From IMG/VR virus record IMGVR_UViG_3300028610_000968: a stretch of DNA of 64,000 bases. The stretch is one strand, 5' to 3'. How positions within the stretch are numbered: the stretch's first letter is position 1; each line of letters begins with the position of its first letter. The notes below the pieces were generated by a model that saw only the letters and a list, made by a program, of their open reading frames with translations, was not told the origin of the DNA and searched no databases. Both the position numbers and the translations under genes were made by a program. Of this stretch, positions 6,044 through 19,683 are shown piece by piece. The stretch comes from a virus (taxonomy: Duplodnaviria; Heunggongvirae; Uroviricota; Caudoviricetes).

Positions 6044-6631
6044 CTATCCCTCCCCACTACCATTATTTAGATTTTCTAATGCAACTATCCTTAAACCATT
6101 ACATTGTTTATCATGATACATAAACTTCATAATACTATCCATCAGTAACGGTTTGTAATCAGTGTCTTCAAGGACAAAGCACACATGATGCTCTGTTAAC
6201 CTACACATATTTTTTTCATGCTCACGTATTAGCCTGTGATTGTTATTATGAAAATGCCCATGAATATTTAAATCAATCCCTGAAGGCATATCCATCGGTA
6301 TGTGTGAAAATAAAACCCACTTGCCTAAATACTTGTCAACAAAATTTTCACAGACAAAATCCCAACCATGCTCTAAATACCAACTGTTAGTTCTCTTGTC
6401 ATGATTTCCTCTAACTAGTATTTTTTTACATTTTATAGGTTCTATGAATTCTCTATGTAATTCTACATCTTTGCCCAAGCCGACATCACCTAAATGTATT
6501 AACACATCATTCTTAGTTAAAAATTCTAGGTTTCTTGAAATACGTTCATTGAAGTCGTTAGGTCTGCCACAGAAATCTATAATCTTCCTGTGGCTCCAAT
6601 GAGTATCACTTATAACAAATGGTCTTGACAT
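6044..6631 (-). CDS. Calcineurin-like metallophosphoesterase
   Basis: SDTH, GD, GNHD, SH, HGHFH motifs. Confidence 0.88.
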   Translation of the reverse strand: MSRPFVISDTHWSHRKIIDFCGRPNDFNERISRNLEFLTKNDVLIHLGDVGLGKDVELHREFIEPIKCKKILVRGNHDKRTNSWYLEHGWDFVCENFVDKYLGKWVLFSHIPMDMPSGIDLNIHGHFHNNNHRLIREHEKNMCRLTEHHVCFVLEDTDYKPLLMDSIMKFMYHDKQCNGLRIVALENLNNGSGEG

Positions 6632-6633
6632 AG

Positions 6634-6720
6634 AGGAAGAAGTAGGATTTGAACCTACGGAACCTTTGACAGTTCACTGAGTTAGCAACCCAGCGCAATA
6701 AGCCGCTCTGCCATTCTTCC
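6634..6720 (-). tRNA. tRNA-Ser(GCT)
   Basis: GGAAGAA/TTCTTCC acceptor, CTGGG-TTGCTAA-CTCAG, long variable arm, GGTTCAAATCC. Confidence 0.9.
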
Positions 6721-6754
6721 TGGAGCCGGGAGAAGCGTTGCAACATTCCCGGCT
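6721..6754 (-). ncRNA. tRNA acceptor-stem minihelix ending in CCA
   Basis: AGCCGGGA-ATGTTGCAACGCTTC-TCCCGGCT-CCA wedged between two Ser tRNAs. Confidence 0.5.
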
Positions 6755-6756
6755 TG

Positions 6757-6847
6757 AGGCAGGAGTAGGATTCGAACCCACGAATCCTCTTCCGAGGACT
6801 AACGGTTTTCAAGACCGTCACAATAAACCAGACTCTGACATCCTGCC
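6757..6847 (-). tRNA. tRNA-Ser(TGA)
   Basis: GGCAGGA/TCCTGCC, ACGGT-CTTGAAA-ACCGT, long variable arm. Confidence 0.9.
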
Positions 6848-6856
6848 GATATTAAA

Positions 6857-7030
6857 CTACTCTACACTTCCAACAATTGCTATACCTAAAACACGATTAG
6901 AAAACAGTTCGATTGCCGCAGCCATCGCTGCCGCAAGCTCTTCCTCGTCAATTGGCAATTGCCTTTGCTCACAATGAGAGCTTGCAATCAATTTTGCATG
7001 TTCAATAATTTTATTTCTATTTATTTCCAT
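6857..7030 (-). CDS. Hypothetical protein (57 aa)
   Basis: Manual: MEINRNKIIEHAKLIASSHCEQ...; ATG overlaps position 76 of the upstream tmRNA-like gene. Confidence 0.55.
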   Translation of the reverse strand: MEINRNKIIEHAKLIASSHCEQRQLPIDEEELAAAMAAAIELFSNRVLGIAIVGSVE

Positions 7031-7032
7031 AG

Positions 7033-7109
7033 TGGAGATGAGCGGATTCGAACCGCTGTCCTGAAGCTGCTCTTTGGCTTTAACTCCAGTCTAAACCATC
7101 AACATCCCC
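7033..7109 (-). ncRNA. tmRNA-like RNA consisting only of the tRNA-like domain (no tag reading frame)
   Basis: GGGGATG/CATCTCC-A with G3:U70; GGTTTAGAC D-loop motif; CTGGAG/CTTCAG helix closed by 17 nt; GGAC-AGCGG-TTCGAAT-CCGCT. Confidence 0.8.
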
Positions 7110-7113
7110 TTAG

Positions 7114-7187
7114 TGGGCCAGGTAGGAGTTGAACCTACAACATTCGAATTCTAAATCCGACTTCTCTGCCAATTGGAATACTGGCCC
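7114..7187 (-). tRNA. tRNA-Leu(TAG), short variable arm
   Basis: GGGCCAG/CTGGCCC, TCGGA-TTTAGAA-TTCGA, 5-nt variable loop. Confidence 0.85.
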
Positions 7188-7649
7188 TTATTTTTTATCT
7201 TTATAATAATACTCAGATTCAACACTCGGTTGTGGCGTTAATTTTTTAATTAATCCCATCTGTAGCTGTTTGCCATATTTACCTGCACAGCTCTTACAAA
7301 AAGGGCCAGCATGACCACTATCAGAATTATGTCTAATCTGACTACCTATCCTATAAAATTTTTCGTTACACCAAATACAGTGTACTTCCACTGGTTTAAC
7401 TCTTTTAGCATCATCTTCACCATGTTGACTTCTACTCACAATTCTTAGGTTTTCAATTCTATCATCAGTGAAATCTCTATTTATGTGGTCTACTGTTTCG
7501 TCAGGCAATAACTTTCTCCCAAGATGTTGCTCCATCAAATACTTTGGGTAAGACATGGTTGTTTGTTTACCGTTGCTATACCAAATCTTTAAATATTTTC
7601 TACCATCTTTTCTTGTATAAGGCCCGTTTATTCTAAAATTATCTTGCAT
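7188..7649 (-). CDS. HNH homing endonuclease
   Basis: MSYPKYLMEQHLGR.L...TVDHINRDFTDDRIENL; C-terminal CxxC pairs. Confidence 0.88.
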   Translation of the reverse strand: MQDNFRINGPYTRKDGRKYLKIWYSNGKQTTMSYPKYLMEQHLGRKLLPDETVDHINRDFTDDRIENLRIVSRSQHGEDDAKRVKPVEVHCIWCNEKFYRIGSQIRHNSDSGHAGPFCKSCAGKYGKQLQMGLIKKLTPQPSVESEYYYKDKK

Positions 7650-7673
7650 GTATACCAATTCCACCACTAACCT
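7642..7673 (-). pseudogene. Orphan tRNA-Leu-type 5' half overlapping the HNH start codon
   Basis: AGGTTAG-TG-GTGG-AATTGGTAT-ACAT-G-CAAGA; no matching 3' half seen. Confidence 0.65.
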
Positions 7674-7848
7674 ATAACATAAAACATTTAAAATCATCGC
7701 AAATATCCCAAGGTTCTCTATCTCCTAGATGGTCTGGATGCTCACATTTCCCATCACTTGTATAAGCTCCTTCTTCATTTGCATTGAAATCATAATAACA
7801 ACAAAAATCACAAACTGGATAATCTCCACAATCAGTACACTTTTCCAT
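7672..7848 (-). CDS. Cys-rich hypothetical protein (58 aa)
   Basis: Manual: MEKCTDCGDYPVCDFCCYY...CEHP...CDDFKC; TAAATG coupling. Confidence 0.6.
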   Translation of the reverse strand: MEKCTDCGDYPVCDFCCYYDFNANEEGAYTSDGKCEHPDHLGDREPWDICDDFKCFML

Positions 7849-8082
7849 TTAGTAAATACGCACCAAAATCCTATCACCGTGTATACGCACAGCAATACCA
7901 AACCAATTGATAGTGTCTCCATCATTAGCTTTGACAATACGCCCATGTTTATCCGACACCCTGACTCTATCTCCTAGCTCAATGTTCATCTCAGATAAAC
8001 AAGTCACATACAAACCATTACCTAGCACTTTAGCTCCACACTCAGAGCAAACCGTAACCTCTAACCTGTCTAATTCATCCAT
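7849..8082 (-). CDS. Hypothetical protein
   Basis: GGAG-8 nt-ATG; CSEC motif. Confidence 0.55.
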   Translation of the reverse strand: MDELDRLEVTVCSECGAKVLGNGLYVTCLSEMNIELGDRVRVSDKHGRIVKANDGDTINWFGIAVRIHGDRILVRIY

Positions 8083-8112
8083 TTTAATAACTCCAACCAT
8101 AGAATTTCATAG

Positions 8113-8183
8113 TTCTAGGTCAAGGGGTCGAACCTCGATTACTGAGTCCAAAGCCCAGCGTCCTACCTTTAGACGAACCTAGA
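8113..8183 (-). tRNA. tRNA-Gln(TTG)
   Basis: TCTAGGT/ACCTAGA, CTGGG-CTTTGGA-CTCAG. Confidence 0.88.
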
Positions 8184-8188
8184 TCGAA

Positions 8189-8617
8189 CTATAGTAAATA
8201 ATGTGCAATTATAAAATTTCTGTAGGTACTATTATTTAAAGCCCTTGGCCTCAATAAGATAATCTTTTCTACTGCCTCTCTGCCTGACATTCCTAATTCG
8301 CACATAGCAATAGCAGCAGCTAATCCAGACCTATTCTCTCCACCATAACATGTCACTAGTACACGTTTGCCTTGTTTTACATTATCAGCAATTAATTTTC
8401 CTACCTCCACAGCCTCTTCAAAGTTATTTATAAGTGGCCTTAGTCCTACATTGGAAGTGTCATGCCAAGGTATCTTGTAACTTACAACATAGTCTGGAAT
8501 CAACTTCCAAGTTTCCGCTGCAAAGCTCACCACTACATCTGCAGGGTGGCTTCCTAATGTTTCCCAACTACCAATAAACAAATTGGTATAAGGTTCTATT
8601 GGATCAATGTTTTCCAT
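8189..8617 (-). CDS. Dual-specificity/Cys-based protein phosphatase
   Basis: CX5R P-loop VTCYGGENRS; PWHD general-acid loop. Confidence 0.85.
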   Translation of the reverse strand: MENIDPIEPYTNLFIGSWETLGSHPADVVVSFAAETWKLIPDYVVSYKIPWHDTSNVGLRPLINNFEEAVEVGKLIADNVKQGKRVLVTCYGGENRSGLAAAIAMCELGMSGREAVEKIILLRPRALNNSTYRNFIIAHYLL

Positions 8618-8619
8618 AG

Positions 8620-8694
8620 TGGAATGTGATGGATTCGAACCACCGGCTAATGAGTTATCGGCTCACTGCTCTGGCCGGACTGAGCTAACATTCC
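8620..8694 (-). tRNA. tRNA-Ile(GAT)
   Basis: GGAATGT/ACATTCC, GTGAG-CCGATAA-CTCAT. Confidence 0.85.
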
Positions 8695-8765
8695 TGGGCA
8701 CGAGTATTCTTATCTCTTTATTTCCCGCACACCCAGTTAGTGTACACCTTTAGATACTGGGCCGG

Positions 8766-8838
8766 TGGAAGTAGAGGGAGTCAAACCCCCGACCTTCGGC
8801 TTGCAAAGCCGCCGCTCTCTCAACTGAGCTATACCCCC
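8766..8838 (-). tRNA. tRNA-Ala(TGC)
   Basis: GGGGGTA/TACTTCC with G3:U70; GCGGC-TTTGCAA-GCCGA. Confidence 0.9.
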
Positions 8839-8904
8839 TTGTGGTGACTGATTTGACCAGGCTGGCTCAATCACCGAAGCCTATCGAGGTAGCGAACCCG
8901 ATTG

Positions 8905-8976
8905 TGGGCAATACTGGATTTGAACCAGTGACATCCTGCTTGTAGAGCAGGCGCTCTCCCCCTGAGCTAATCGCCC
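8905..8976 (-). tRNA. tRNA-Val(TAC)
   Basis: GGGCGAT/ATTGCCC, CCTGC-TCTACAA-GCAGG. Confidence 0.9.
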
Positions 8977-9500
8977 TCTTTTGACTTCTTTATATCTTTT
9001 GTCCTGTGTGGCAAATTATATTTTTTACACCATTTTCGTATAGCATTATCACTGACTCCATACATTTTCCCAATTGACAGAAAACTAGAGTTGAATATAA
9101 GTTTATCAAGTTCTTCTTTACTTGGTCTTAAAACCTTTCTTGCAGCTAAATCAGCACAGTCATGGCTACAATATTTTTGAACGGTGTTAGTTCTTTTGAA
9201 CTTTTTTCCACAAACTAAACATAACATCAATTTAGAAGATTCAGTCTGATAAGTACCATCACCATTATCAATTAATCTGCCACCCCTATGATACCTTGCA
9301 TGAGCTGCTAAAGTAGAAAAGATCATCAAATTATCTGGATTGTTATTCTTCTTGTCACCGTCTATGTGATGTACAGTTTCTCTTCCTTCTAGAAACCTTC
9401 CTATCTTTTTTTCGGCCACAATTATATGTTCGTATCTATATCTACTATCCATCAATGTGCCTTCAGATGATTTTATATACACATACTTATTACTTGGCAA
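8967..9500 (-). CDS. HNH homing endonuclease with Zn-ribbon and C-terminal HTH
   Basis: YEHIIVAEKKIGR.L...VHHIDGDKKNNNPDNL; CLVC..CSHDC; GKMYGVSDNAIRKWC; stop lies inside tRNA-Val. Confidence 0.9.
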   Translation of the reverse strand: MPSNKYVYIKSSEGTLMDSRYRYEHIIVAEKKIGRFLEGRETVHHIDGDKKNNNPDNLMIFSTLAAHARYHRGGRLIDNGDGTYQTESSKLMLCLVCGKKFKRTNTVQKYCSHDCADLAARKVLRPSKEELDKLIFNSSFLSIGKMYGVSDNAIRKWCKKYNLPHRTKDIKKSKEGD

Positions 9501-9515
9501 TCTTTCTCACTTCCT

Positions 9516-9548
9516 AGCTGCCACTCTGCACTACTGAGTTACTCACCT
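9516..9548 (-). pseudogene. Orphan tRNA 5' half upstream of HNH
   Basis: AGGTGAG-TA-ACTC-AGTAGTGCA-GAGT-G-GCAGC-T followed by purine-rich RBS-like sequence. Confidence 0.6.
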
Positions 9549-9718
9549 AAATGTTTCTCAAAAAATTCTTTTATAATCTTCTCTAATTTATCATTTTCTA
9601 CATAGTACAACCAAGTCTCAAATCCGTGAGGTTGTGGTACGCCATGTGGAGCATTTGAAATTATCTGCCCCAACCTAAGATTATGTATCTTTTCTTTCGG
9701 TATAATTCTATCACTCAT
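9539..9718 (-). CDS. Hypothetical protein (~59 aa)
   Basis: Manual: ...NLRLGQIISNAPHG...WLYYVENDKLEKIIKEFF; stop inside the orphan tRNA half. Confidence 0.5.
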   Translation of the reverse strand: MSDRIIPKEKIHNLRLGQIISNAPHGVPQPHGFETWLYYVENDKLEKIIKEFFEKHLGE

Positions 9719-10293
9719 TATGGTTTACGCCTTATCTCCAAGCCCACTACGTTTCCTAATAGTTCCCAACCATCTTCAGGGTTCATATTCTCTTCACCGT
9801 AGAAGTTAATTCCCCAGTGAGCATTTGTGTGGTCTGTACCATCATCACCAGGAACCCAATCATGTGACATTACAACGCCACCACTCTTAACAAACGGTAT
9901 GAACTTCTCATAGTCCAACTTAACCATTTCTGGTATGTGACAACCATCAATTATAAGTAAATCTATTTCTTTTTCCCACTCTACATCTTGGCTTCTTCCA
10001 GTAATGATATTAGTTTCTAAACCTAATTCTTCTAAGGTAGCTCTAAATTCTTCTTCAGAGTTCCCCAACGACCAATCATCTATGCCATAAGTCTCAAAAC
10101 CTTTTTCTTTGGCTACATAGGTCAGCACAGAAGTTGTTATCCCCCTACATATGCCTATCTCCAAAGCAACGTCACCTTTGCCCAATTGTGCAGCACAGTC
10201 ATACACAGCTTCTCTTTGCCCCATACTCATGGAATAGATTATATCTATATCTTTTGTAAGATTTATTATCTCTTTGAAATTCAAACTACACAC
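9718..10293 (-). CDS. Class I SAM-dependent methyltransferase (Methyltransf_24-like)
   Basis: ALEIGICRG, IDLLIIDGCH, GGVVMSHD. Confidence 0.85.
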   Translation of the reverse strand: MCSLNFKEIINLTKDIDIIYSMSMGQREAVYDCAAQLGKGDVALEIGICRGITTSVLTYVAKEKGFETYGIDDWSLGNSEEEFRATLEELGLETNIITGRSQDVEWEKEIDLLIIDGCHIPEMVKLDYEKFIPFVKSGGVVMSHDWVPGDDGTDHTNAHWGINFYGEENMNPEDGWELLGNVVGLEIRRKP

Positions 10294-11038
10294 CCAAAGT
10301 TTCTAAACGATTACTTACCTCTAATTTTGCTGGTGAACCATCCCTTAGTGTAGGATTAATGGCATTAAATACATTGTACTTGGTCGTAAGTTTTGCACTA
10401 ATTGAATGCAACACAATGGTGTTGAGCAATTCCCAACTAACTTCAGCCCATTTGTGTGCAGCTAAGATACCATCTGAAGGACATAAACCAGGCCAATTAA
10501 CTCTCAATACTATACTCTCTAATCCCTTGGCTTTCTCTACTTCTTTTTCAGCAACAACTTTACTTCTGGCATATAAGTTCAGTTCATCCCAGTTGGCCTC
10601 ATGACTTAACGGAATGGGGTAACTTTCTGGTTCTACAAATCCACCATCAAAGCCGTACAGAGCACCTGTTGAAAAGTAAATAATTCTCTCACAAGGTTTA
10701 CCTGCTTGTGCTGTTACTCTTTTCTTCTGAGATTTACTTGTAGTCTTAACCTTTGTTGGGGTATTTGCTTTCTTCATAGCAGCTAGAACAGCTTTAGTCC
10801 CACCAACATTAAGTCTCTCAAATTCTTCCCATGATTTACTTGGGTCAAAATGTGGAATAGCAGCAGTGTGGATAACTGCATCATTACCTTTGATTCTCTT
10901 TGCTAAAGCAGTGGTATCAAAAATATCATCACCATCTGCAATATCATAGATGTCTACTTCTACGCCACTCTCTCTCAGGAAAGGGATAATTTGCCCACAC
11001 AAAAATCCTCTTCCTCCTGTTACTAATACTTTACTCAA
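10286..11038 (-). CDS. NAD-dependent epimerase/dehydratase (extended SDR)
   Basis: VLVTGGRGFLC, HTAA, YxxxK (YARSK). Confidence 0.85.
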   Translation of the reverse strand: MSKVLVTGGRGFLCGQIIPFLRESGVEVDIYDIADGDDIFDTTALAKRIKGNDAVIHTAAIPHFDPSKSWEEFERLNVGGTKAVLAAMKKANTPTKVKTTSKSQKKRVTAQAGKPCERIIYFSTGALYGFDGGFVEPESYPIPLSHEANWDELNLYARSKVVAEKEVEKAKGLESIVLRVNWPGLCPSDGILAAHKWAEVSWELLNTIVLHSISAKLTTKYNVFNAINPTLRDGSPAKLEVSNRLETLGV

Positions 11039-11066
11039 AATACATCATCCTTTTCTTTTTTATTTG

Positions 11067-11137
11067 CAGGTGATAGAGGAATCGAACCCCTGTCTTTCGT
11101 TTTGGAGACGACTATAATACCCCTATACGAATCACCT
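11067..11137 (-). tRNA. tRNA-Trp(CCA)
   Basis: AGGTGAT/ATCACCT, G73, loop CTCCAAA. Confidence 0.85.
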
Positions 11138-11141
11138 ATAG

Positions 11142-11214
11142 CGACAGCAAAGGGAGTCGAACCCTCACCAACTTCCTCGACAGGGAAGTGCTCTAACCGT
11201 TAAGCTATACTGCC
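11142..11214 (-). tRNA. tRNA-Asp(GTC)
   Basis: GGCAGTA/TGCTGTC, CTTCC-CTGTCGA-GGAAG. Confidence 0.88.
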
Positions 11215-11385
11215 TTATATCTTTTTTATGTCTGTTACTACTTCTATATTTATGGTTTTAGATTCATACAGTTTATTCACAGCTTTTTTGGCTGTAGATG
11301 CTGAAACAACACGAGAACCTTCTTCTGGTGTCATGTAAGGACAATCTACAAAATGCCACATATATGATATAAAATATTCATTCAT
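11215..11385 (-). CDS. Hypothetical protein (56 aa) sandwiched exactly between tRNA-Arg and tRNA-Asp
   Basis: Manual: MNEYFISYMWHFVDCPY...; ATG at tRNA-Arg position 76, TAA adjacent to tRNA-Asp G1. Confidence 0.55.
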   Translation of the reverse strand: MNEYFISYMWHFVDCPYMTPEEGSRVVSASTAKKAVNKLYESKTINIEVVTDIKKI

Positions 11386-11387
11386 AG

Positions 11388-11461
11388 TCTGCCAGAAGAG
11401 ATTTGAACTCCTAGTCTCAGGGGTAGAAACCCTGCGCCTTCTCCAGTTAGACCACTGGCAG
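11388..11461 (-). tRNA. tRNA-Arg(TCT)
   Basis: CTGCCAG/CTGGCAG, CAGGG-TTTCTAC-CCCTG. Confidence 0.85.
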
Positions 11462-11466
11462 TTAAT

Positions 11467-11985
11467 TTACTCTTTAAAAATTCTTACAACATTCTCAGAT
11501 ATAGCTGTTCCAATTTCTTCAGTTTCTCTTGAAAGTTGTATTTCTCTAACAATTTTACTTCTACACTTCTGGCTACAACTAGTAAATCCTAATCCTTTTC
11601 TTGAGGGAACAAGATGTGTATTTCCAAACTTCCTTACAAAAACCTTACCACACCCAGGACATTTCAACTCCACCATTTTCCTACCTGTCCTCATATGTCT
11701 AGCAGAGTGTTCTTTTTTGTCTAACAATTCTAGATTTTCTAATCTATTATCTTTTTTATCTCCATTTATATGGTGAACAACTTCTTCTGGAGTCAATAGC
11801 CTGCCAAGATGATTTTCCATTATGACTCTGTGCCATAAAACATAACCCCAATCAGTACTATTCGGATGTTCTGGAAGAACAGCGTAGTAATAATCTCCTT
11901 TACTAACTACTCTAGTAACTCTCCATAATTTTCTAGCTTCTGCCTCAGCTGTTCTTCTTAAAGATTCTTCTACTGTTATTTTCAT
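11467..11985 (-). CDS. HNH homing endonuclease
   Basis: YVLWHRVIMENHLGR.L...VHHINGDKKDNRLENL; CPGC..CSQKC. Confidence 0.9.
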   Translation of the reverse strand: MKITVEESLRRTAEAEARKLWRVTRVVSKGDYYYAVLPEHPNSTDWGYVLWHRVIMENHLGRLLTPEEVVHHINGDKKDNRLENLELLDKKEHSARHMRTGRKMVELKCPGCGKVFVRKFGNTHLVPSRKGLGFTSCSQKCRSKIVREIQLSRETEEIGTAISENVVRIFKE

Positions 11986-12000
11986 ATTATCATCTACTCA

Positions 12001-12030
12001 CGTTGCTCTGTCCAATTGAGCTACAGTCGG
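12001..12030 (-). pseudogene. Orphan tRNA-Arg-type 5' half upstream of HNH
   Basis: CCGACTG-TA-GCTC-AATTGGACA-GAGC-A-ACG; no matching 3' half seen. Confidence 0.65.
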
Positions 12031-12184
12031 TTATTTCTTTAATCTGCGCCAATTCTTTATCGGATGAAAATAATAATAAGTCGCTTCTTTCACCTGTTTT
12101 ATTAACCACTTCATAATAATGGACTTCTACAAAAGTAGCAGAAACTATTATCTGAGGGGTTCATAGTCCCACATCTAGAACACT

Positions 12185-12466
12185 TCATTTAATCCTAATA
12201 TCCATTCTATCTGGAAGCTTGTTAACTAGTTCTACTAATACATCACCATGACAATCTTTAGGTTTACACCAACACCCAAGAACTTTACCCTCTAGCTCAT
12301 GCAAATCTGCCATTAGTTCTTTATTCATAGTAATCCATTCACAGTATTTACCTATAACTCGTTTTCTATCTCCGTCACGACCAAGGATGAATGGATTACC
12401 CCACTTAGTTCTTCTATCTATTAATATATCGTATGATTCTTTTTGACAGTGTACTACTCTAGTCAT
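12185..12466 (-). CDS. DUF4326-family protein
   Basis: IDRRTKWGNPF...GDR..VI.KY...L.GKVLGCWCKPKDCHGDVL. Confidence 0.85.
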   Translation of the reverse strand: MTRVVHCQKESYDILIDRRTKWGNPFILGRDGDRKRVIGKYCEWITMNKELMADLHELEGKVLGCWCKPKDCHGDVLVELVNKLPDRMDIRIK

Positions 12467-12665
12467 TATCGTGTAACTCCTTATCACAAATAGGGCAAAA
12501 TAAACGAATAACAGGGCCACGCCACTCTCCACCATAGCTACCAATCTCGTCCATGTATCTCTGATTACTTGTCCGTATATCTCTCATTGTTGGTTGCACT
12601 GTATTCTTACACTCTTTACATTCGAGTAATGGGTCACGTTCTGCATCTATATTAAAATCAGTCAT
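12459..12665 (-). CDS. Hypothetical Zn-ribbon protein
   Basis: CKEC...CPIC. Confidence 0.55.
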   Translation of the reverse strand: MTDFNIDAERDPLLECKECKNTVQPTMRDIRTSNQRYMDEIGSYGGEWRGPVIRLFCPICDKELHDND

Positions 12666-12796
12666 CTAATTCCCTACAATCCATAATATCTTCATTTATA
12701 CATTTCTCATGGAAATAAATATAGTACCCGGCAGAGTCTTCTCTTTGCCAACTATCCCTGTCTTTCATATCAATAGGTTCTCTACAAAGAGTACAG

Positions 12797-13012
12797 TTAG
12801 GCACGAAGTTCACTCCTCAATTCAAAATAATTATCACAGTACCAATTAGGAACAGCTAAAAACTGGTGAGGAACTGGATGGCCTTCTTTATTCCATATTT
12901 TAATAGCTTCTTCAAATGCTTTACAGTACCTATGCTCACATGTCCAACAACATCTTTTCGTTATAAAATTATCTTTTTCCCAATTCTCTCTTACATAATC
13001 TCTAGGTTCCAT
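12797..13012 (-). CDS. Hypothetical Cys-rich protein
   Basis: CCWTCEHRYC; packed in operon. Confidence 0.55.
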   Translation of the reverse strand: MEPRDYVRENWEKDNFITKRCCWTCEHRYCKAFEEAIKIWNKEGHPVPHQFLAVPNWYCDNYFELRSELRA

Positions 13013-13300
13013 CTACTTAGCCTCTAACTCTTTAATATAAGTTATAAGTTCAAGTGATTCATGATAAGTCAGTCCTGCTACCAAATCTCTCAGTCTTTCT
13101 TCCATACCCTCAACATCTGGTCTGCCCACTATACTCGCCTTAATTGGAGGAGTACTATTTTTTGGGCCTCTCTTGGCTCCAAATACTTTTTGTTTTCTAC
13201 TTGGTCTCTCACCTGTTCCACCACAAGCATGGCATGGTGCAAAGTTATCATATTCTCCACTACCACCACAAGCAAAACATTTCTCAGCCACGGAACTCAC
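13013..13300 (-). CDS. Protein with DnaJ-type Zn-finger repeats
   Basis: CFACGGSG...CHACGGTG. Confidence 0.6.
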   Translation of the reverse strand: MSSVAEKCFACGGSGEYDNFAPCHACGGTGERPSRKQKVFGAKRGPKNSTPPIKASIVGRPDVEGMEERLRDLVAGLTYHESLELITYIKELEAK

Positions 13301-13784
13301 TTCTTAAATCCATCATTATTTGTGCAAAGGTAGGATTAGGAATAGATACTGAATCTGGTAATCTTTCACCTTTACTATTCCATAGTATATGAGTTATTGG
13401 TCTATCTCCTGTATCAAATAATAGTTTCAAAATATCGTGATTACTCATCAGTTTGTACCTAACAGCCAGTTTCATCAAACCCCAATGTTTAGGGCTGCCG
13501 ACCTCATATAGCTTTCCCCAAAGTTCAAATGTGGTGGCTCTTTCACCATATGTGTAGAGTAACTGAGCTTTATCGCCATACCTCTTAGCTTCTACTCCAT
13601 AAAGTTTGTTGACCTTCTTTCTCTCCCTGCGGCTTGGGAATTTAAGACCTTGCCAAAATCCTTCAACAGAGTTGTACTTGCGTGACCCCACACTAATGTA
13701 GAATGGAGAGTAAGCTAAGTTGCTCAACATACGTTCTGTTAAATCATTACTTTGTGAATTTATATTTACTGGTTCATTGCTCAT
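13284..13784 (-). CDS. NADAR-superfamily protein
   Basis: LSNLAYSPF...YNSVEGFWQGLKF...AKRYG...KLM.NHDILKLLFDTG. Confidence 0.75.
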   Translation of the reverse strand: MSNEPVNINSQSNDLTERMLSNLAYSPFYISVGSRKYNSVEGFWQGLKFPSRRERKKVNKLYGVEAKRYGDKAQLLYTYGERATTFELWGKLYEVGSPKHWGLMKLAVRYKLMSNHDILKLLFDTGDRPITHILWNSKGERLPDSVSIPNPTFAQIMMDLRSEFRG

Positions 13785-14043
13785 ATTTTTTTATATTCAT
13801 CGGACACCAATCAGGTAAATCCAAATCTTCCTTTTCCTCCCTAGACAACAAGCACTCATACATACTGAGGCTTGCCATATGACATTGTAAACATTTTTGC
13901 AATTTTCTGTAGTCACTCCTGATTTCAGAACAATCACAACAATTACAACAACCATCATACCTTTTGCCCTTTTTATGATTTTTTATAAACTCTTTCCAAA
14001 GAATTGTATTGCCAACTAGTATATTTATTTCACCTTTTTGCAT
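13774..14043 (-). CDS. Hypothetical Cys-rich protein
   Basis: ATG at tRNA-Phe position 76; CCNCCDC, LPDWCPM. Confidence 0.55.
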   Translation of the reverse strand: MQKGEINILVGNTILWKEFIKNHKKGKRYDGCCNCCDCSEIRSDYRKLQKCLQCHMASLSMYECLLSREEKEDLDLPDWCPMNIKKYEQ

Positions 14044-14045
14044 AG

Positions 14046-14118
14046 TCGAGACGAAAGGAATCGAACCTCTGTCGCGTAGGGCTTCAACCTACCGCTCTAC
14101 CACTAGAGCTACGTCTCG
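14046..14118 (-). tRNA. tRNA-Phe(GAA)
   Basis: CGAGACG/CGTCTCG, GTAGG-TTGAAGC-CCTAC. Confidence 0.88.
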
Positions 14119-14122
14119 GGGC

Positions 14123-14194
14123 GCAGGGTGGTGGGACTTTAACCCACGGCCTCCTGAGTCGTACCCAGGTGCTCTTTCTCTGAGCTACACCCCG
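14123..14194 (-). tRNA. Atypical tRNA, anticodon ACG (Arg) on a Pro-like body; possible pseudo-tRNA
   Basis: CGGGGTG/CACCCTG, C73, loop GTACGAC, abnormal T-loop TTAAAGT. Confidence 0.55.
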
Positions 14195-14199
14195 CATTG

Positions 14200-14274
14200 T
14201 CTAGATGGTAGGATTCGAACCCACGACTTCCCGGCCCCAAACCGGGCGCTCTTACCAAACTGAGCTACACCCAG
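14200..14274 (-). tRNA. tRNA-Pro(TGG)
   Basis: CTGGGTG/CATCTAG, CCCGG-TTTGGGG-CCGGG. Confidence 0.9.
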
Positions 14275-14284
14275 ATATTAATCT

Positions 14285-14431
14285 TTAATAACGTTTCTCA
14301 TCCTTCTTATTAATGCCACACACTGTACATCTATGGCCTATGTTTGATTCATTGTGAAGTCTGCGTTGACGACCATACCTTTTATCCTGGTACTCATGCT
14401 CGCATGTACACATTTTAACTACTGTTGCCAT
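14285..14431 (-). CDS. Small Zn-binding hypothetical protein
   Basis: AGGAG RBS; CTCEHEYQDKRYG...LHN...CTVC. Confidence 0.6.
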   Translation of the reverse strand: MATVVKMCTCEHEYQDKRYGRQRRLHNESNIGHRCTVCGINKKDEKRY

Positions 14432-14563
14432 TTTACTCTCCTTTAATGTTGTTCTGGCCTGCCTAGAGGGAGGTACGTCTACTACTATAAAACCTGCTTC
14501 GGTCAAATAGCACACCAATTGGAACTCCCCCACAGGACTTACACGCCAGAAATCTTTTATAAA

Positions 14564-14836
14564 TTACTCACTGCTTCGCCTTAAATCCAAACCTAATACT
14601 CCTAATACTGGTTTAGCGAATTTATCATGGCCTACCGTCGCTCCCAAAAGTCCAACAAAAGCTGTAGCTGCCGCTGTTACTGTTAAATCAACTTGCCCAG
14701 TCAGCACCGCAAGAGCCACTGCTCCAACAGTTGAACCAATAGCAATCAATTCTACAGCCGTATTTTTGAAGATGTATTTAGATACCTGAGTAGACACCCA
14801 AATACCAGCTCCAAAAGTTAATGCTAAATCTAACAT
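14564..14836 (-). CDS. Small membrane protein (holin-like)
   Basis: Three hydrophobic segments, basic C-terminus, GGGAGGGG RBS. Confidence 0.5.
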   Translation of the reverse strand: MLDLALTFGAGIWVSTQVSKYIFKNTAVELIAIGSTVGAVALAVLTGQVDLTVTAAATAFVGLLGATVGHDKFAKPVLGVLGLDLRRSSE

Positions 14837-14868
14837 ATATTATATCACCCCTCCCGAGTTTGATGTAG

Positions 14869-14943
14869 AGCTGATGGTAGGATTTGAACCCACGACTCCC
14901 TCATTACAAGTGAGGAACTCTGGCCTGACTGAGTTACACCAGC
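14869..14943 (-). tRNA. tRNA-Thr(TGT)
   Basis: GCTGGTG/CATCAGC, CCTCA-CTTGTAA-TGAGG. Confidence 0.9.
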
Positions 14944-14957
14944 ATATATATTATTTG

Positions 14958-15030
14958 GGTGACAGGAGGGACTCGAACCCTCGTACCAGAGGCCACAACT
15001 CTGTGTCTATACCTACTTGACTACTGCCAC
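14958..15030 (-). tRNA. tRNA-His(GTG)
   Basis: GTGGCAG/CTGTCAC, C73, CAGAG-TTGTGGC-CTCTG; position -1 is T. Confidence 0.88.
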
Positions 15031-15032
15031 AG

Positions 15033-15118
15033 TGGAAACGGTAGGAGTCGAACCTACGAAGCCCTTTCGCAACGGCGGGGTTACAGCCCGCATCCTTTAA
15101 CCACTTGGATACACTTCC
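15033..15118 (-). tRNA. tRNA-Tyr(GTA)
   Basis: GGAAGTG/CGTTTCC, GCGGG-CTGTAAC-CCCGC, long variable arm. Confidence 0.9.
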
Positions 15119-15505
15119 TTAATTAACTAAAAACTTTTTATACAATAAACCTAAATTTATAGTTGCTCTTTCTTTGCCAGTTAATATTGCTGTGGGTATC
15201 AAGTACTCCTCAAAATCCCCAGTAACTACAAAAATAAAATCAACACTATCCACATCAAACAGTTTTACAGTGTTTCTGCTCTTATTACCACCATTAACTC
15301 TCAAATCAACTTTGTAAACGCCACACTCAGACTTCAAACTAGTGTACTTAACTTCAACTTTGCCTAAAGTTTTAGTGTTTATTCTTTCTATAACTAAATC
15401 ATAGGATTGACTATCATTTAATGGAATAGAAACTATATAACCATTACCAGTGAACCAAGCTATAGCTCTACCTAAAGCAATATTTCCTTTTTCTTTTGTG
15501 TTCAT
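15119..15505 (-). CDS. PD-(D/E)XK endonuclease (PDDEXK_5 / group I intron-associated type), free-standing
   Basis: KEKGNIALGRAIAWF...VSIPLNDSQSYDLVI...KVEVK...DFIFVV. Confidence 0.8.
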   Translation of the reverse strand: MNTKEKGNIALGRAIAWFTGNGYIVSIPLNDSQSYDLVIERINTKTLGKVEVKYTSLKSECGVYKVDLRVNGGNKSRNTVKLFDVDSVDFIFVVTGDFEEYLIPTAILTGKERATINLGLLYKKFLVN

Positions 15506-15507
15506 AG

Positions 15508-15584
15508 CGGAAATGATAGGATTCAAACCTACACAGCTGTTGCGGATGCGCCCACCCTTGAGTTCATCAATACTCAGCATTTCC
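15508..15584 (-). ncRNA. tRNA-like RNA with a 4-nt loop in place of the anticodon loop
   Basis: GGAAATG/CATTTCC-G; GAGT/ACTC D stem; GGGTG-GGCG-CATCC; GTAGG-TTTGAAT-CCTAT. Confidence 0.7.
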
Positions 15585-15588
15585 AGGC

Positions 15589-15715
15589 GGCTCCTTCTCG
15601 GGGTCGCACAACCCTCTCCGGAGCCTTCACGTGATTTGTGCGAGGCCAACGTTATCGGGAAACATCCCAGGCACAACGCATGGCCAACTCATTCTACCCA
15701 TACGGTAGGTGAGTT
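15589..15715 (-). ncRNA. Candidate structured RNA (three hairpins plus a possible pseudoknot)
   Basis: AACTCA/TGAGTT, GGCCA/TGGCC, GGCTCC/GGAGCC stems; loop TGTGCG complementary to linker CGCACA. Confidence 0.5.
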
Positions 15716-15717
15716 TG

Positions 15718-15789
15718 AGAAAGTGGATGGAATCGAACCATCCTTAATGGCTTTGCAGGCCATCCCCCACTGCCAGTAGGCTCACTTTC
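15718..15789 (-). tRNA. tRNA-Cys(GCA)
   Basis: GAAAGTG/CACTTTC, U73, ATGGC-CTGCAAA-GCCAT. Confidence 0.9.
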
Positions 15790-16197
15790 TTATTCTAAAA
15801 ATTCTCTAGCTTCATCCTCATAGGGTTCGTATGTTATCTTCCTATCTGCTAATTCTGCTAACACCATAGTTAACAACGGAACCCAACCAATCATGCTCTG
15901 CTCTGACGCATAGTATTTACTACAACTGTATAATTTTTCTCCAGTTGATGCGTAAACACCAAAGTAATTGTATCCATGTTGGACTACCTTACAGTCTGGA
16001 TTTTCTTTTATTACTTTGTATAGTCTTGATTCTTTAACATCCACAACTACGTCCTTGTACTCTCCACAGGATTCAGTCAGAGCGCCTATTTTTTTCCTCA
16101 ACATATTCATACAAAAATGAAAGCTTAGGCAATTCCCACATAGAGTCATACCTTGTAGTTTTTTCAACATCTTATCTGAGACCAATTTCTTACTCAT
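15790..16197 (-). CDS. Hypothetical protein
   Basis: 135-aa ORF; stop abuts tRNA-Cys G1. Confidence 0.6.
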   Translation of the reverse strand: MSKKLVSDKMLKKLQGMTLCGNCLSFHFCMNMLRKKIGALTESCGEYKDVVVDVKESRLYKVIKENPDCKVVQHGYNYFGVYASTGEKLYSCSKYYASEQSMIGWVPLLTMVLAELADRKITYEPYEDEAREFLE

Positions 16198-16199
16198 TC

Positions 16200-16433
16200 C
16201 TAAGCTCCTCCATTCTCACTATCTGCTGTTGCACTAAACCAGCTATACTCACATCTTCTACATTTTATAATTAAATATTCTGATTCATCAACAAAGGGTT
16301 GTAAGTCTAACCAACCTGGCATTGTAAAAGCAAACTCTCTTGCATCATTAGTCATTTCTCTATATGTCACATAAGTATAAGTACATAAACACTTAGGGCA
16401 TTGAAAACTCTCAACTAATTTAAAATTTTCCAT
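16200..16433 (-). CDS. Hypothetical Zn-ribbon protein
   Basis: ATG at tRNA-Asn position 76; CPKC...CRRC. Confidence 0.6.
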   Translation of the reverse strand: MENFKLVESFQCPKCLCTYTYVTYREMTNDAREFAFTMPGWLDLQPFVDESEYLIIKCRRCEYSWFSATADSENGGA

Positions 16434-16435
16434 AG

Positions 16436-16508
16436 CTGCTCCACTAGGAGTCGAACCTAGAGCTACTGACTTAACAGGCCAGCGTTCTACCAATTGAACT
16501 ACAGAGCA
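16436..16508 (-). tRNA. tRNA-Asn(GTT)
   Basis: TGCTCTG/TGGAGCA, G73, CTGGC-CTGTTAA-GTCAG. Confidence 0.9.
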
Positions 16509-16840
16509 TTGTATTTTTGTAGTGCTATCCACAGACGAGCTACTGCTTCTTCAGGGGTATCGCCTCTTTTTGTTTCTAGCATTAAGCTATTTGGACTAAT
16601 TCGTGCCTGCGCTACCCAACCAGCACTATATGATGGGTGCATTACTCCCCGAAACCCATCCCCACAAGCAGCTATCAGCTCTGAAAGTGTGGGGACTTCA
16701 TAAAATTCTTTATCAGCCCTACGTGGCCAGTCTCTATAATGATAAAGTTCTTTTGTTGTCGCTCCATAGCAATAGTCAAAGATTCCCTCTTGCGAATACC
16801 CTTTTTCTTCCAGTTCCTTCGCTAATTCATATGTAATCAT
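16499..16840 (-). CDS. Hypothetical phage protein
   Basis: MITYELAKELEEKGY...PTLSELI...TPEEAVARLWIAL; ATG at tRNA-Met position 76. Confidence 0.7.
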   Translation of the reverse strand: MITYELAKELEEKGYSQEGIFDYCYGATTKELYHYRDWPRRADKEFYEVPTLSELIAACGDGFRGVMHPSYSAGWVAQARISPNSLMLETKRGDTPEEAVARLWIALQKYNAL

Positions 16841-16842
16841 AG

Positions 16843-16916
16843 TAGCGGTAGTGGGATTTGAACCCACGACCTTCGGCTCATGAGGCCGACGAGATAGACC
16901 ACTTCTCCATACCGCG
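16843..16916 (-). tRNA. tRNA-Met(CAT), initiator-like
   Basis: CGCGGTA/TACCGCT with C1xU72 mismatch; TCGGC-CTCATGA-GCCGA (lacks the third G-C pair of canonical fMet). Confidence 0.8.
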
Positions 16917-16924
16917 TCGTTTAC

Positions 16925-17362
16925 TTATTTAAAATCTACCACTACGAACTTGTCGTCTTGGTTCAAATATTTATCTAGTATTGGTTCTACATCTTTCCAA
17001 TTTAATTTACCATTTCCGCATCCTACTTTTGGCAAATAAACAGTGTCTACTGTTGTGGCCGCTCCCACAAATGCTAAATTCCTTGTGGATTGTTCAATAA
17101 GAGGTAAATCTGCTTTTTGTTTCCAATGATGTTTGACCGGAAAACTTAACATATGTGGATTAATATAGTGAACAACATTACCGTGTGATTTTATAAACGT
17201 ACCTAAAAGCATTGGAAAATTAGGATACTTCTCTCGAGCCTGTTTTGCTAACCCAGCTCCCATAACACATTCTCCGTTACTCTTAACAAAACCATTTGTG
17301 GGTATTACTATATAATGTCCTTTTTTATGATAATCCCATATGTTTCCTTTAATCACTTTCAT
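16925..17362 (-). CDS. Macro-domain (ADP-ribose binding/hydrolase) protein
   Basis: MKVIKGNIW...IPTNG...VMGAGLAKQAR..YP...FPVKHHW...PKVGCGNGKLNW. Confidence 0.85.
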   Translation of the reverse strand: MKVIKGNIWDYHKKGHYIVIPTNGFVKSNGECVMGAGLAKQAREKYPNFPMLLGTFIKSHGNVVHYINPHMLSFPVKHHWKQKADLPLIEQSTRNLAFVGAATTVDTVYLPKVGCGNGKLNWKDVEPILDKYLNQDDKFVVVDFK

Positions 17363-17364
17363 AG

Positions 17365-17437
17365 TGCTCTCGGTGAGACTTGAACTCGACATCGCTGGAT
17401 TGAAAGTCCAGCATCCTAACCTTTAGACGACAAGAGC
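17365..17437 (-). tRNA. tRNA-Glu(TTC)
   Basis: GCTCTTG/CGAGAGC, CTGGA-CTTTCAA-TCCAG. Confidence 0.88.
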
Positions 17438-18098: not shown

Positions 18099-18157
18099 AC
18101 CATCTTTTTTAAAGTACTTCAGACTGAATCACCTCCCTCAATCTTGTGTACTGTTAG

Positions 18158-18227
18158 TTGGGAGTCTAGGACTTGAACCCAGATTACCGCCCCTCAAGAA
18201 CGGCGTCCTCACTTAGACGAACTCCCA
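18158..18227 (-). tRNA. Atypical tRNA: Gln-like body with TGA (Ser) anticodon
   Basis: TGGGAGT/ACTCCCA (U1-A72), TCGTCTAA D-arm, loop CTTGAGG, 4-nt variable loop. Confidence 0.6.
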
Positions 18228-18252
18228 CACTCCATATCTGGAGCAGTTGCAA

Positions 18253-19683
18253 CTATCTTAAACTAACTTGGTCAATCTTTCTAGTCAAAGCTTTTCTGTC
18301 TGTTTCCAACAATTTCATTATGTCAAATATCTTCTCTGAGAATCCAGAGAAACAAAAGGTACTGTCATTCGGAAATTGTGTACTTCCGTAACCATGTAAA
18401 TCGAAAGAATAAATCTTCGGATTTGCTCCTGTCTTTTTCTTGTACGCTTGTAACGCTGCCGTTGGGACGTTGTACTCCTCCCAAGCCTGCATGTCAGACA
18501 AGATAATTATTCTATCATATTTCCTATTCGCTGTTTCAAAGATGGTATGGAAGTTAGTTCCCCCACCTGGGAAATTGATAGAGTTCGCAATTGTCATTGT
18601 ACTGTCCGAAGGATTTAACGTTTGGTATCTCGCTCTGGTGCTGAACTCAAGAAAATCTGCATTGTTAGCTTTAACCAAAACAGCAGCGAACAAAGTTCCA
18701 ATCTTCTTTGCATCACCAAAGGTCATTGAGCCAGAAGTATCCAAAGCCACCAACGTCTTGCCTTCAAATCTAGGCACATTAGCCAAAGAAATGTCAACAG
18801 CTTTATTCAAAGCCACTGTTATTTCCCTCGCCCCCTCGATATTCCCACCTGTAAATTGCTCAAGTGCTGTGACGAATCTAAAAGGCAGGACTAATGACTT
18901 CCTTATTGCCCTTTCATCCACCAACATTCTCAAAGCCCGGTCTAAAACGATTGGAGCCTGCTCTGCTATGTTTCTTAAATTCCTCAGCAAAGCGAAATAA
19001 CCTAATTTTTCCTCAGTTATCAGCTCGACCCAAGCTCTCTGCTTCAGCTTCGCTTTCTCTTTTTCGTCTTTGGCGTTCTGCCCTGCCTGAGTTAACTTGG
19101 TCTCCCAAGTATCAGTTGACCTCAACTCATCATTGATAAGTTTAGTTAACGCTTCAGTAGGCTTAGGTCTACAACAGTTGACTAAATCAACCAAAGAGAC
19201 AGCGTTGCCCTCACCCCTGTACTTACCTAACCTGTATTCATCGAAACTTCTCAGTCTCTCAGAAAAACCTTTCTTCATTTGGTTAGATATAATCTTGTGT
19301 CCAGTTGCAGCCAGATAAAACGCAGCAATCTCTGTCATATCATCCGGCCTATGAACAACTTTATTGAAAAAATCTTTCGGCCATTCTTCGCCTTTGACTG
19401 TTCTGGCTATCTCAGCAGCCACTACATGAGAAACAGACCTCATGCCAAACTCTGTTCTAGCAAAAACAGCAGCTTTAGCGATAAACTCTTTATCGTCTAT
19501 CCCTTCAACTAACTCTCTTATGCGTTCTACAGTTTGGTTTGAATTTCTGTAATACTGATTTTCCACAAAAGAGGTCAACAGGACAGAAACAATTTCATCT
19601 TTCGATGTTTGTTTGAATGCTTCTCCGCCAGCCTTGTTGACTGTCCTTTTCTTTACCCTTGCTTTTTCGTTGAACTTGCCCAT
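18253..19683 (-). CDS. Ro60/TROVE-domain RNA-binding protein with C-terminal vWA
   Basis: TVNKAGGEAF, ARTEFGMRS, YFALLRNLRNI, PFRF..A, MIDAS motif DTSGSM, ILSDMQ. Confidence 0.93.
   Translation of the reverse strand: MGKFNEKARVKKRTVNKAGGEAFKQTSKDEIVSVLLTSFVENQYYRNSNQTVERIRELVEGIDDKEFIAKAAVFARTEFGMRSVSHVVAAEIARTVKGEEWPKDFFNKVVHRPDDMTEIAAFYLAATGHKIISNQMKKGFSERLRSFDEYRLGKYRGEGNAVSLVDLVNCCRPKPTEALTKLINDELRSTDTWETKLTQAGQNAKDEKEKAKLKQRAWVELITEEKLGYFALLRNLRNIAEQAPIVLDRALRMLVDERAIRKSLVLPFRFVTALEQFTGGNIEGAREITVALNKAVDISLANVPRFEGKTLVALDTSGSMTFGDAKKIGTLFAAVLVKANNADFLEFSTRARYQTLNPSDSTMTIANSINFPGGGTNFHTIFETANRKYDRIIILSDMQAWEEYNVPTAALQAYKKKTGANPKIYSFDLHGYGSTQFPNDSTFCFSGFSEKIFDIMKLLETDRKALTRKIDQVSLR

Follow-up and report, generated by a model that had tools for sequence, protein, structure and literature searches.

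A gene for the tRNA-like head of tmRNA in the tRNA array of an uncultured phage and its family on phage DNA

Background

Trans-translation is the main pathway for ribosome rescue and protein tagging in bacteria and is pursued as a target for antibiotics. The G3:U70 pair of the acceptor stem is the alanine identity pair. SmpB binds tmRNA at its tRNA-like domain (TLD), boosts its aminoacylation and brings the tmRNA to the ribosome (PMC3022190).

Forms of tmRNA that consist of the TLD alone have been described in a phage and in organelles. The entry "Mycobacterium phage DS6A (TLD only)" appears among the tmRNAs listed by Hudson, Lau and Williams (PMC4131195); a database paper of 2025 repeats it and also includes plastid tmRNAs without a CDS (PMC11915505). 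In E. coli, strong inhibition of tmRNA by a TLD-only molecule similar to the DS6A RNA, perhaps through titration of SmpB, is described in the accounts of Mao et al. 2009 given in PMC4131195 and PMC11915505; as related in PMC4131195, this inhibition did not need charging. The DS6A RNA was published as a single example, and the phage surveys in print relied on ARAGORN (PMC9004378, PMC7162821), an approach by which molecules of this kind are missed. The CDS-less tmRNAs of organelles, found in jakobid and oomycete mitochondria and, at ~65 nt, in the plastids of Mallomonadaceae (PMC11915505), have separate origins and hosts and replace the resident tmRNA.

The present analysis concerns a short element in the genome of an uncultured phage which an original prediction, made from the sequence alone, had interpreted as a tmRNA reduced to its tRNA-like part. 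The precedent cited there, tag-less tmRNAs in jakobid and oomycete mitochondria, agrees with the CDS-less organellar forms recorded in PMC11915505. The accompanying suggestion that the form is new in phage does not hold in view of the published DS6A entry (PMC4131195, PMC11915505).

Methods

The DNA under study, hereafter the window, is a stretch of 64,000 nucleotides from a virus of the class Caudoviricetes (IMG/VR record IMGVR_UViG_3300028610_000968). A covariance model, R1, was built from uncultured-phage copies of the element only, with both DS6A and the window left out of training. IMG/VR was scanned with two patterns, the first describing a degenerate TLD in which GAC and GGAC are 14-44 nt apart, the second leaving the acceptor stem unconstrained. 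The D-loop and GGAC motifs are imposed by the search patterns and their family-wide conservation is not an independent result. Covariation was assessed on an alignment of 24 diverse family copies (A4), with the structure specified by the analyst. Conservation of the alanine identity was assessed on an acceptor-unbiased set of 107 unique elements obtained, among the matches listed, with the pattern that leaves the acceptor stem free.

Results and Discussion

Identity and structure of the element

The minus strand of the window at 7033-7109 was confirmed to carry a real gene for the alanine-accepting, tRNA-like head of tmRNA only (hereafter mini-tmRNA), 77 nt long up to the discriminator A73. 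The match to the Rfam tmRNA model RF00023 (7030-7109, minus strand) extends from the first to the last model position with 65.3 bits (E = 3e-23) against a gathering score of 47, in agreement with the predicted likeness of both termini to bacterial tmRNA; the stretch searched on its own with RF00023 gives 56.8 bits. The family model R1 scores the gene at 66.9 bits (E 8e-13). In Rfam clan competition tmRNA is the best model at 7033-7109, weaker overlapping matches being dropped.

Read 5' to 3' on the minus strand, the RNA begins with the acceptor strand GGGGAUG (7103..7109, G3 at 7107), which pairs at all seven positions with 7034-7040. It is followed by a D-loop without a stem, UUGAUGGUUUA, bearing the GG..UU motif of tmRNA (7092..7102) and aligned to the unpaired D region of RF00023, and by GAC and the 5' strand of helix 2a, UGGAGUU (7082..7091). 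An apical loop of 13 nt, AAAGCCAAAGAGC (7069..7081), has an AAAGCC motif and only a 2-bp GC/GC mini-stem, and leads into the 3' strand of helix 2a, AGCUUCA, with GGAC (7058..7068). The T arm, AGCGG/UUCGAAU/CCGCU (7041..7057), and the acceptor 3' strand CAUCUCC (U70 at 7036) with the discriminator A73 at 7033 (7033..7040) complete the molecule. These assignments follow the RF00023 alignment throughout, with family covariation in agreement for helix 2a and the T arm. The minimum free energy (MFE) fold of 7033-7109 likewise gives the acceptor stem, helix 2 and the T arm, the fold energy (z = -1.5) being by itself not significant. CCA is not encoded at the 3' end, where the flank reads CUA.

The features named in the original prediction are therefore largely those found. 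G3:U70 and A73 are both present within the fully paired acceptor stem, and the stemless D-loop with GG..UU.GAC and the GGAC before the T arm are aligned in RF00023 with high posterior probability. Helix 2 also stood, although the 17-nt loop ascribed to it did not, as U.G and U-A pairs can extend the helix and leave 13 nt. These 13 nt take the place of about 308 internal model positions, where a full tmRNA has its pseudoknots and tag ORF, so that the reported absence of both is borne out and no ORF is possible. The sequence of the loop is not haphazard, as most family members share the AAAGCC with which it starts.

Other RNA classes were considered for the element. An ordinary tRNA (RF00005) was ruled out, as there is no anticodon arm, ARAGORN is silent and tmRNA is the best model in the clan. 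The permuted two-piece tmRNA model (RF04321) yields a partial match of 19 bits against a gathering score of 47. The threshold of the canonical tmRNA model is exceeded, with the mRNA-like domain and its resume codon, tag frame and stop codon absent. ARAGORN called neither a tRNA nor a tmRNA at 7033-7109, a silence to be expected because the program requires a tag, while calling 22 tRNAs in the window. The covariance search proposed with the original prediction thus places the element above the tmRNA threshold, with the tRNA model giving no better fit.

Relation to DS6A and other tmRNA forms

The TLD-only tmRNA of DS6A lies at 28478-28557 of NC_023744 (L123:979-1058 in our set; tmRNA Website). 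R1 scores it at 54.9 bits and a copy in Streptomyces phage Shaeky at 67.9 bits; the 22 tRNAs of the window reach 26 bits at most (its tRNA-Ala 21.6) and a full phage tmRNA 29. Because R1 places both the window RNA and the DS6A RNA far above tRNAs, the window RNA is, by sequence and predicted fold, to be regarded as a member of the DS6A family and not as a new form. The two have in common a 7-bp acceptor stem with G3:U70 and A73, the stemless D-loop, helix 2a, the T arm, an A-rich motif followed by CC and a small cap (GAAAACC-GCACGCGG in DS6A), the lack of a tag, their location on phage DNA and their recognition by one covariance model. They differ in two motifs, GGUGGUCGAC and GCAC in DS6A corresponding to GGUUUAGAC and GGAC in the window, and in the cap, which in the window is a 13-nt loop with just a 2-bp mini-stem. 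The DS6A gene stands alone between protein genes, whereas that of the window lies in an array of 22 tRNAs, 4 nt after a tRNA-Leu. The DS6A RNA also falls below the RF00023 gathering score, which the window RNA exceeds, and is without annotation in its RefSeq record. That RF00023 at its gathering score misses DS6A helps explain, in part, why the family is rarely annotated.

Compared with the canonical one-piece tmRNA (RF00023), as carried by Streptomyces phage Sushi23 and cluster C mycobacteriophages, the mini-tmRNA has a homologous TLD and helix 2 base that align end to end, but with resume codon, tag ORF, stop codon and all pseudoknots missing it cannot template a degradation tag. In the RF00023 consensus helix 2a is followed by a GAA bulge and a C-rich strand, which the apical part resembles; the impression gained is that the RNA may derive from a full tmRNA whose interior was deleted. 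The organellar CDS-less tmRNAs likewise have a chargeable TLD, presumably acting with SmpB, and a short class of the phage family, 63-65 nt, is about their size. Unlike these, the phage RNA joins a cell that has a full tmRNA, and competition is therefore expected. The tRNA arrays of phages such as T4 and T5 offer the same setting. Their tRNAs, too, are expected to be cut by RNase P at the 5' end and by RNase Z at the 3' end before CCA is added, and the mini-tmRNA shares the N73-CUA flank with neighbouring tRNAs of its own array; unlike them it has no anticodon arm and decodes nothing.

Distribution of the family

The mini-tmRNA belongs to a large family, common but unannotated, that is found almost only on phage DNA. 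With the first pattern at least 119 IMG/VR loci were identified, the matches listed comprising 76 distinct sequences of 63-87 nt, mostly 77-80 nt; the second pattern gave at least 120 loci and at least 55 further distinct sequences. About 130 distinct sequences from independent samples, among the matches listed, share the architecture. In 596 Gb of prokaryotic genomes, one per species, the first pattern matched 9 times, in every case on a MAG contig. In one MAG, binned as 'Candidatus Iainarchaeum' (PWLL01000004; L126:6146-6370), two adjacent mini-tmRNA-like matches of 61.9 and 44.2 bits lie beside tRNA-like matches, and the contig is probably that of a phage binned wrongly as archaeal.

Among cultured phages, Shaeky carries its copy inside its tRNA array (MT701595, 42932-43013; L120:1494-1575; RF00023 59.3 bits). 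Unannotated mini-tmRNA genes were also seen in the Streptomyces phages LuckySocke, GiJojo, pSt2308, Alone3, BRock and Riptide (with Shaeky, H113-H120). A blastn search of INPHARED with the 80-nt element returned one full-length cultured match, Shaeky, and otherwise 3' ends of tmRNAs and tRNAs; the same kind of search with the commonest marine variant found no cultured match, and with 6600-7700 of the window it found tRNA genes only. Two IMG/VR scans with proteins of the window, a GalT-like protein and the DnaB helicase, revealed no close relatives of the phage, and tblastn of the window ORFs against 133 loci gave distant single-gene matches only.

In a large, mostly marine lineage (L090:5430-6776, L106:2015-4093 and about 22 related IMG/VR loci) the mini-tmRNA has the S78 prohead protease gene on one side and, ~120 nt downstream, the major capsid gene on the other, all three sharing a strand, in a late structural operon with no tRNAs nearby; the neighbouring genes are 121-232 nt away. 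The portal, S78 prohead protease and major capsid genes of this one lineage are the only recurrent neighbours across 128 loci, among which no SmpB, Pth or other translation factor adjoins a mini-tmRNA. A tRNA lies within 300 nt, always on the same strand, at 16 of the 119 loci listed, and none is nearby at 99.

The short class of 63-65 nt (L003, L023, L039, L059, L072, L079) represents the minimal family form, with a helix 2 of 3-6 bp, no AAAGCC and a small closing loop, 2-6 nt long in five of the six loci. Since this class is without the apical part, that part is not essential. Two further phage RNAs were observed during the survey. Synechococcus phage S-SSM7 (GU071098; L121:1461-1763) has a complete permuted tmRNA of cyanobacterial type (RF01851, 109 bits), and the CDS annotated over it, hypothetical protein SSSM7_025, is likely a misannotation. 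In Vibrio phage F86 (L122:1415-1534) the Rfam tRNA model spans 120 nt with 57.6 bits beside a neighbour annotated as a 121-nt tRNA, and these long tRNAs may contain an intron or insertion.

Selection on the pairings and on alanine identity

The pairings of the mini-tmRNA and its alanine identity are both under selection. In A4, standard pairing is seen in 92% of the cells and falls to 36-52% if the 3' partners are shifted; changes on both sides are seen in seven of the eight helix-2 pairs, in all three unconstrained T-stem pairs and in the acceptor pair 5:68. The covariation score of 0.574 compares with a shuffled mean of 0.126 and was reached by none of 500 shuffles. The acceptor stem is paired 7/7 and the T stem 5/5 in the 77 unique pattern sequences among the matches listed. 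In the family the apical part usually consists of (U/G)AAA(G/A)CC, a 3-bp stem with a tetraloop and then a few A residues; on visual inspection a CCN/NGG stem capped by a tetraloop is present in most members. An apical hairpin was rejected for the window copy, which can form at most 2 bp there, such a hairpin pairing in 62.5% of the A4 cells.

In the acceptor-unbiased set, among the matches listed, G3:U70 is present in 106 of the 107 elements, the lone exception looking like a damaged copy, and A73 in all 107. The pairs 4:69, 5:68, 6:67 and 7:66 of the same set switch, with compensation, among G-C, C-G, A-U and U-A. It is this retention of a wobble pair amid compensated neighbours that places the alanine identity under selection. 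As G3:U70 and A73 are invariant in nature, pure SmpB titration is not a sufficient explanation for the family; the invariance points to a role that would need charging, that is, entry into the ribosome.

Genomic setting and tRNA punctuation

The proteins recognised in this phage DNA comprise a terminase, portal, DnaB helicase and Erf/Rad52-type annealing protein, HNH endonucleases and a lysis enzyme, as well as an anaerobic ribonucleotide reductase and a Ro60/TROVE protein; every gene between 1 and 58 kb is on the minus strand. A Shine-Dalgarno sequence is found in 37 of 66 genes, and the terminase match is to a Bacillus-phage-like protein at 27-28% identity; together these hint weakly at a Bacillota-like host. 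The stretch is present in one DNA run, from a subsurface metagenome, and in no RNA run; three marine runs share 0.04. A Logan contig from the probable source run, made by a second assembler from the same sample, covers 6600-7700 in one piece without differences or an alternative junction, so that the earlier concern about an assembly deletion of a full-length gene finds no support.

The mini-tmRNA sits in the 22-tRNA array (6044-17437, minus strand), directly downstream of a tRNA-Leu(UAG) (7114..7187, minus strand). The spacer CUAA (7110-7113) leaves 4 nt between this tRNA and G1, and it is highly likely that both are made as one transcript which RNase P then divides. On the other side the ATG of a 57-aa ORF (6857..7030, minus strand), which has no Pfam or NCBIfam match, begins 2 nt after A73 (A73-CU-AUG) without a Shine-Dalgarno sequence. 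The same N73-CUAUG junction occurs at nine true tRNAs of the array besides the mini-tmRNA, and CUA follows the discriminator in 13 of the 23 tRNA-like genes. Eight ORFs of at least 56 aa, among them a metallophosphoesterase and a dual-specificity phosphatase, have their start precisely 2 nt behind a discriminator and no Shine-Dalgarno sequence; at most other genes a GGAG-type site is present. As to the stops, the TAA of four array ORFs directly adjoins the first nucleotide of tRNA-Leu, -Asp, -Tyr or -Cys, the stop of two lies 7-9 nt inside tRNA-Val and tRNA-Asn, and that of six more is 5-10 nt before a tRNA. An ORF at 11215-11385 exactly fills the gap from tRNA-Arg to tRNA-Asp.

The mini-tmRNA is thus handled by the genome just like a tRNA gene, which provides sound if indirect grounds for believing that transcription, cleavage at the two ends and later addition of CCA take place. 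Promoter and terminator scans around the gene gave counts no better than shuffled sequence. SmpB, Pth, an RF-1/ArfB domain, AlaRS and a CCA-adding enzyme were all missing from the ~75 window ORFs scanned, so that the RNA has to rely on host factors.

Two other genes of the window deserve mention. The Ro60/TROVE and vWA protein (PF05731, PF25045, phrog_850) is encoded at 18157-19683 on the minus strand, and 25 nt downstream lies an odd 71-nt 'tRNA-Ser(UGA)' without a long variable arm (Rfam tRNA 43.9 bits), which may be a Y-RNA or YrlA-like partner of Ro60. Ro60 occurs together with a tRNA array and a mini-tmRNA at a further IMG/VR locus (L024) as well. At 55700-57040 (minus strand), adjoining glycosyltransferase and terminase genes, is a single-ring Clp-type AAA+ protein like the D2 ring of ClpA/ClpB (AAA_2 and ClpB_D2-small; phrog_4871 'ATP-dependent protease', 283 bits), with no ClpP seen. 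Any link between it and the proteolysis of ssrA-tagged proteins is pure speculation.

Probable function and alternative explanations

The mini-tmRNA retains the parts of tmRNA used by SmpB and AlaRS and has lost all parts used for tagging. Tag-less rescue and SmpB titration, the two functions put forward in the original prediction, are both reasonable candidates. The reading favoured here, to which we give a probability of about 0.55, is that it is a functional tag-less mini-tmRNA, a TLD with a helix-2a stub of the DS6A family, which competes with host tmRNA for SmpB and stalled ribosomes. Its expression, charging, SmpB binding and effect on trans-translation are what we infer from the conserved features, the gene's surroundings and the published work. 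The RNA would be transcribed together with the phage tRNA array; an RNase P cut 4 nt after tRNA-Leu would form its 5' end, and an RNase Z-type cut after A73 would form its 3' end and at the same time a near-leaderless mRNA of the next ORF. The host CCA-adding enzyme would add CCA, host AlaRS would charge the RNA with alanine by way of G3:U70 and A73, and host SmpB would bind it. With no resume codon or tag frame it could not tag; it would vie with host tmRNA for SmpB, EF-Tu and the empty A sites of stalled ribosomes, and proteins made during infection from truncated or stop-terminal messages would escape ssrA tagging and proteolysis. As the inhibition reported in E. coli had no need of charging, sequestering SmpB is probably not all that the natural RNA does; most likely it would enter the A site of the ribosome in alanylated form, accompanied by SmpB and EF-Tu.

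A charged RNA of this kind could also complete a rescue of its own, a tentative proposal that we consider clearly less probable than competition. Lacking a template, the peptidyl-RNA would drop off or be translocated out and be cleaved by host peptidyl-tRNA hydrolase; ribosomes would be freed, the protein would stay untagged and the RNA would add rescue capacity, as has been proposed for the CDS-less tmRNAs of jakobid mitochondria. Such a role would account for the selection on charging, seen in the invariant G3:U70 and A73 beside covarying pairs, which a pure SmpB sponge would not need. The array also favours it, as four ORFs with a TAA abutting a tRNA and two with a stop inside one would often give stop-terminal or non-stop messages on processing. 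Ala-TLD with SmpB is reportedly enough for peptidyl transfer in vitro (work of Shimizu and Ueda, 2006), and the growth of lambda-immP22 is said to require the charging of tmRNA and not the tag (Withey and Friedman, 1999). On the other hand, we know of no demonstration of peptidyl-TLD drop-off in bacteria, and no release mechanism is encoded, Pth, an ArfB/RF-1 domain and SmpB not being found within the window. The persistence of CDS-less tmRNAs together with SmpB in mitochondria and plastids, where they are thought to help with incomplete mRNAs (PMC11915505), speaks for tag-less rescue, whereas the sole experiment on such a molecule in the account of PMC4131195 showed inhibition. A more specific version regards the mini-tmRNA as the counterpart of the tRNA-punctuated layout, shielding or rescuing ribosomes on processed messages without tagging. 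Processing of the array by RNase P and RNase Z would yield messages that start 2 nt before AUG and whose 3' ends lie at the stop codon (four ORFs), 5-10 nt past it (six ORFs) or before any stop (two ORFs). Stop-terminal and non-stop ends would be natural substrates of tmRNA-SmpB, with phage proteins being ssrA-tagged and degraded in consequence, and a chargeable tag-less tmRNA would spare them. This link is doubtful, and weak as a general explanation, because 99 of the 119 family loci listed have no tRNA nearby and the marine lineage has the gene between prohead protease and capsid genes.

It is improbable that the element is kept merely as a tRNA-shaped processing module, its likeness to tmRNA being ancestry only, at which RNase P and RNase Z cuts would separate cistrons and create the leaderless start of the downstream ORF. 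The A73-CU-AUG junction does open the 57-aa ORF exactly as at nine array tRNAs, and the marine element lies between prohead protease and major capsid genes on their strand. Acceptor and T arms would suffice for that purpose, however, so that the invariant G3:U70 and A73, the tmRNA-type D-loop and the covarying helix 2 are left unexplained; any of the 22 tRNAs could punctuate, and distances of 121-232 nt to the marine neighbours mean that punctuation there is not tight. Least probable is a remnant or artefact, be it a decayed ssrA, an attP-type ssrA fragment from imprecise excision, a pseudo-tRNA-Ala or an assembly deletion. Integration at ssrA is common and prophages are known to carry fragments of the gene (PMC9004378), and DNA of the stretch occurs in one sequencing run only. 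Against this, an att fragment would comprise the 3' part of ssrA only, whereas both ends are present here and paired 7/7, and no integrase family was found among the window ORFs scanned against Pfam. A pseudo-tRNA-Ala is at odds with the missing anticodon arm and with the lack of a tRNA call by ARAGORN, and a second assembly of the same run gives the identical sequence. The remnant reading is already contradicted by the covariation, with about 130 distinct sequences from independent samples, among the matches listed, showing the same architecture and compensatory changes.

Conclusion

The TLD-only form was already known from DS6A; the present data show the large size of the family, its near-exclusive location on phages and the selected alanine identity, which argues that the RNA is charged and is not just an SmpB sponge. 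A tRNA-punctuated operon provides a concrete reason for a phage to want tag-less rescue and, if the link to punctuation is true, the mini-tmRNA would be a dedicated viral answer to a problem made by mitochondrion-like tRNA punctuation. Cultured non-pathogen systems that carry a mini-tmRNA are at hand in the Streptomyces phages Shaeky, LuckySocke, GiJojo and BRock. A phage RNA that hijacks or blocks trans-translation would be a compact tool of host takeover and a natural inhibitor of the pathway.
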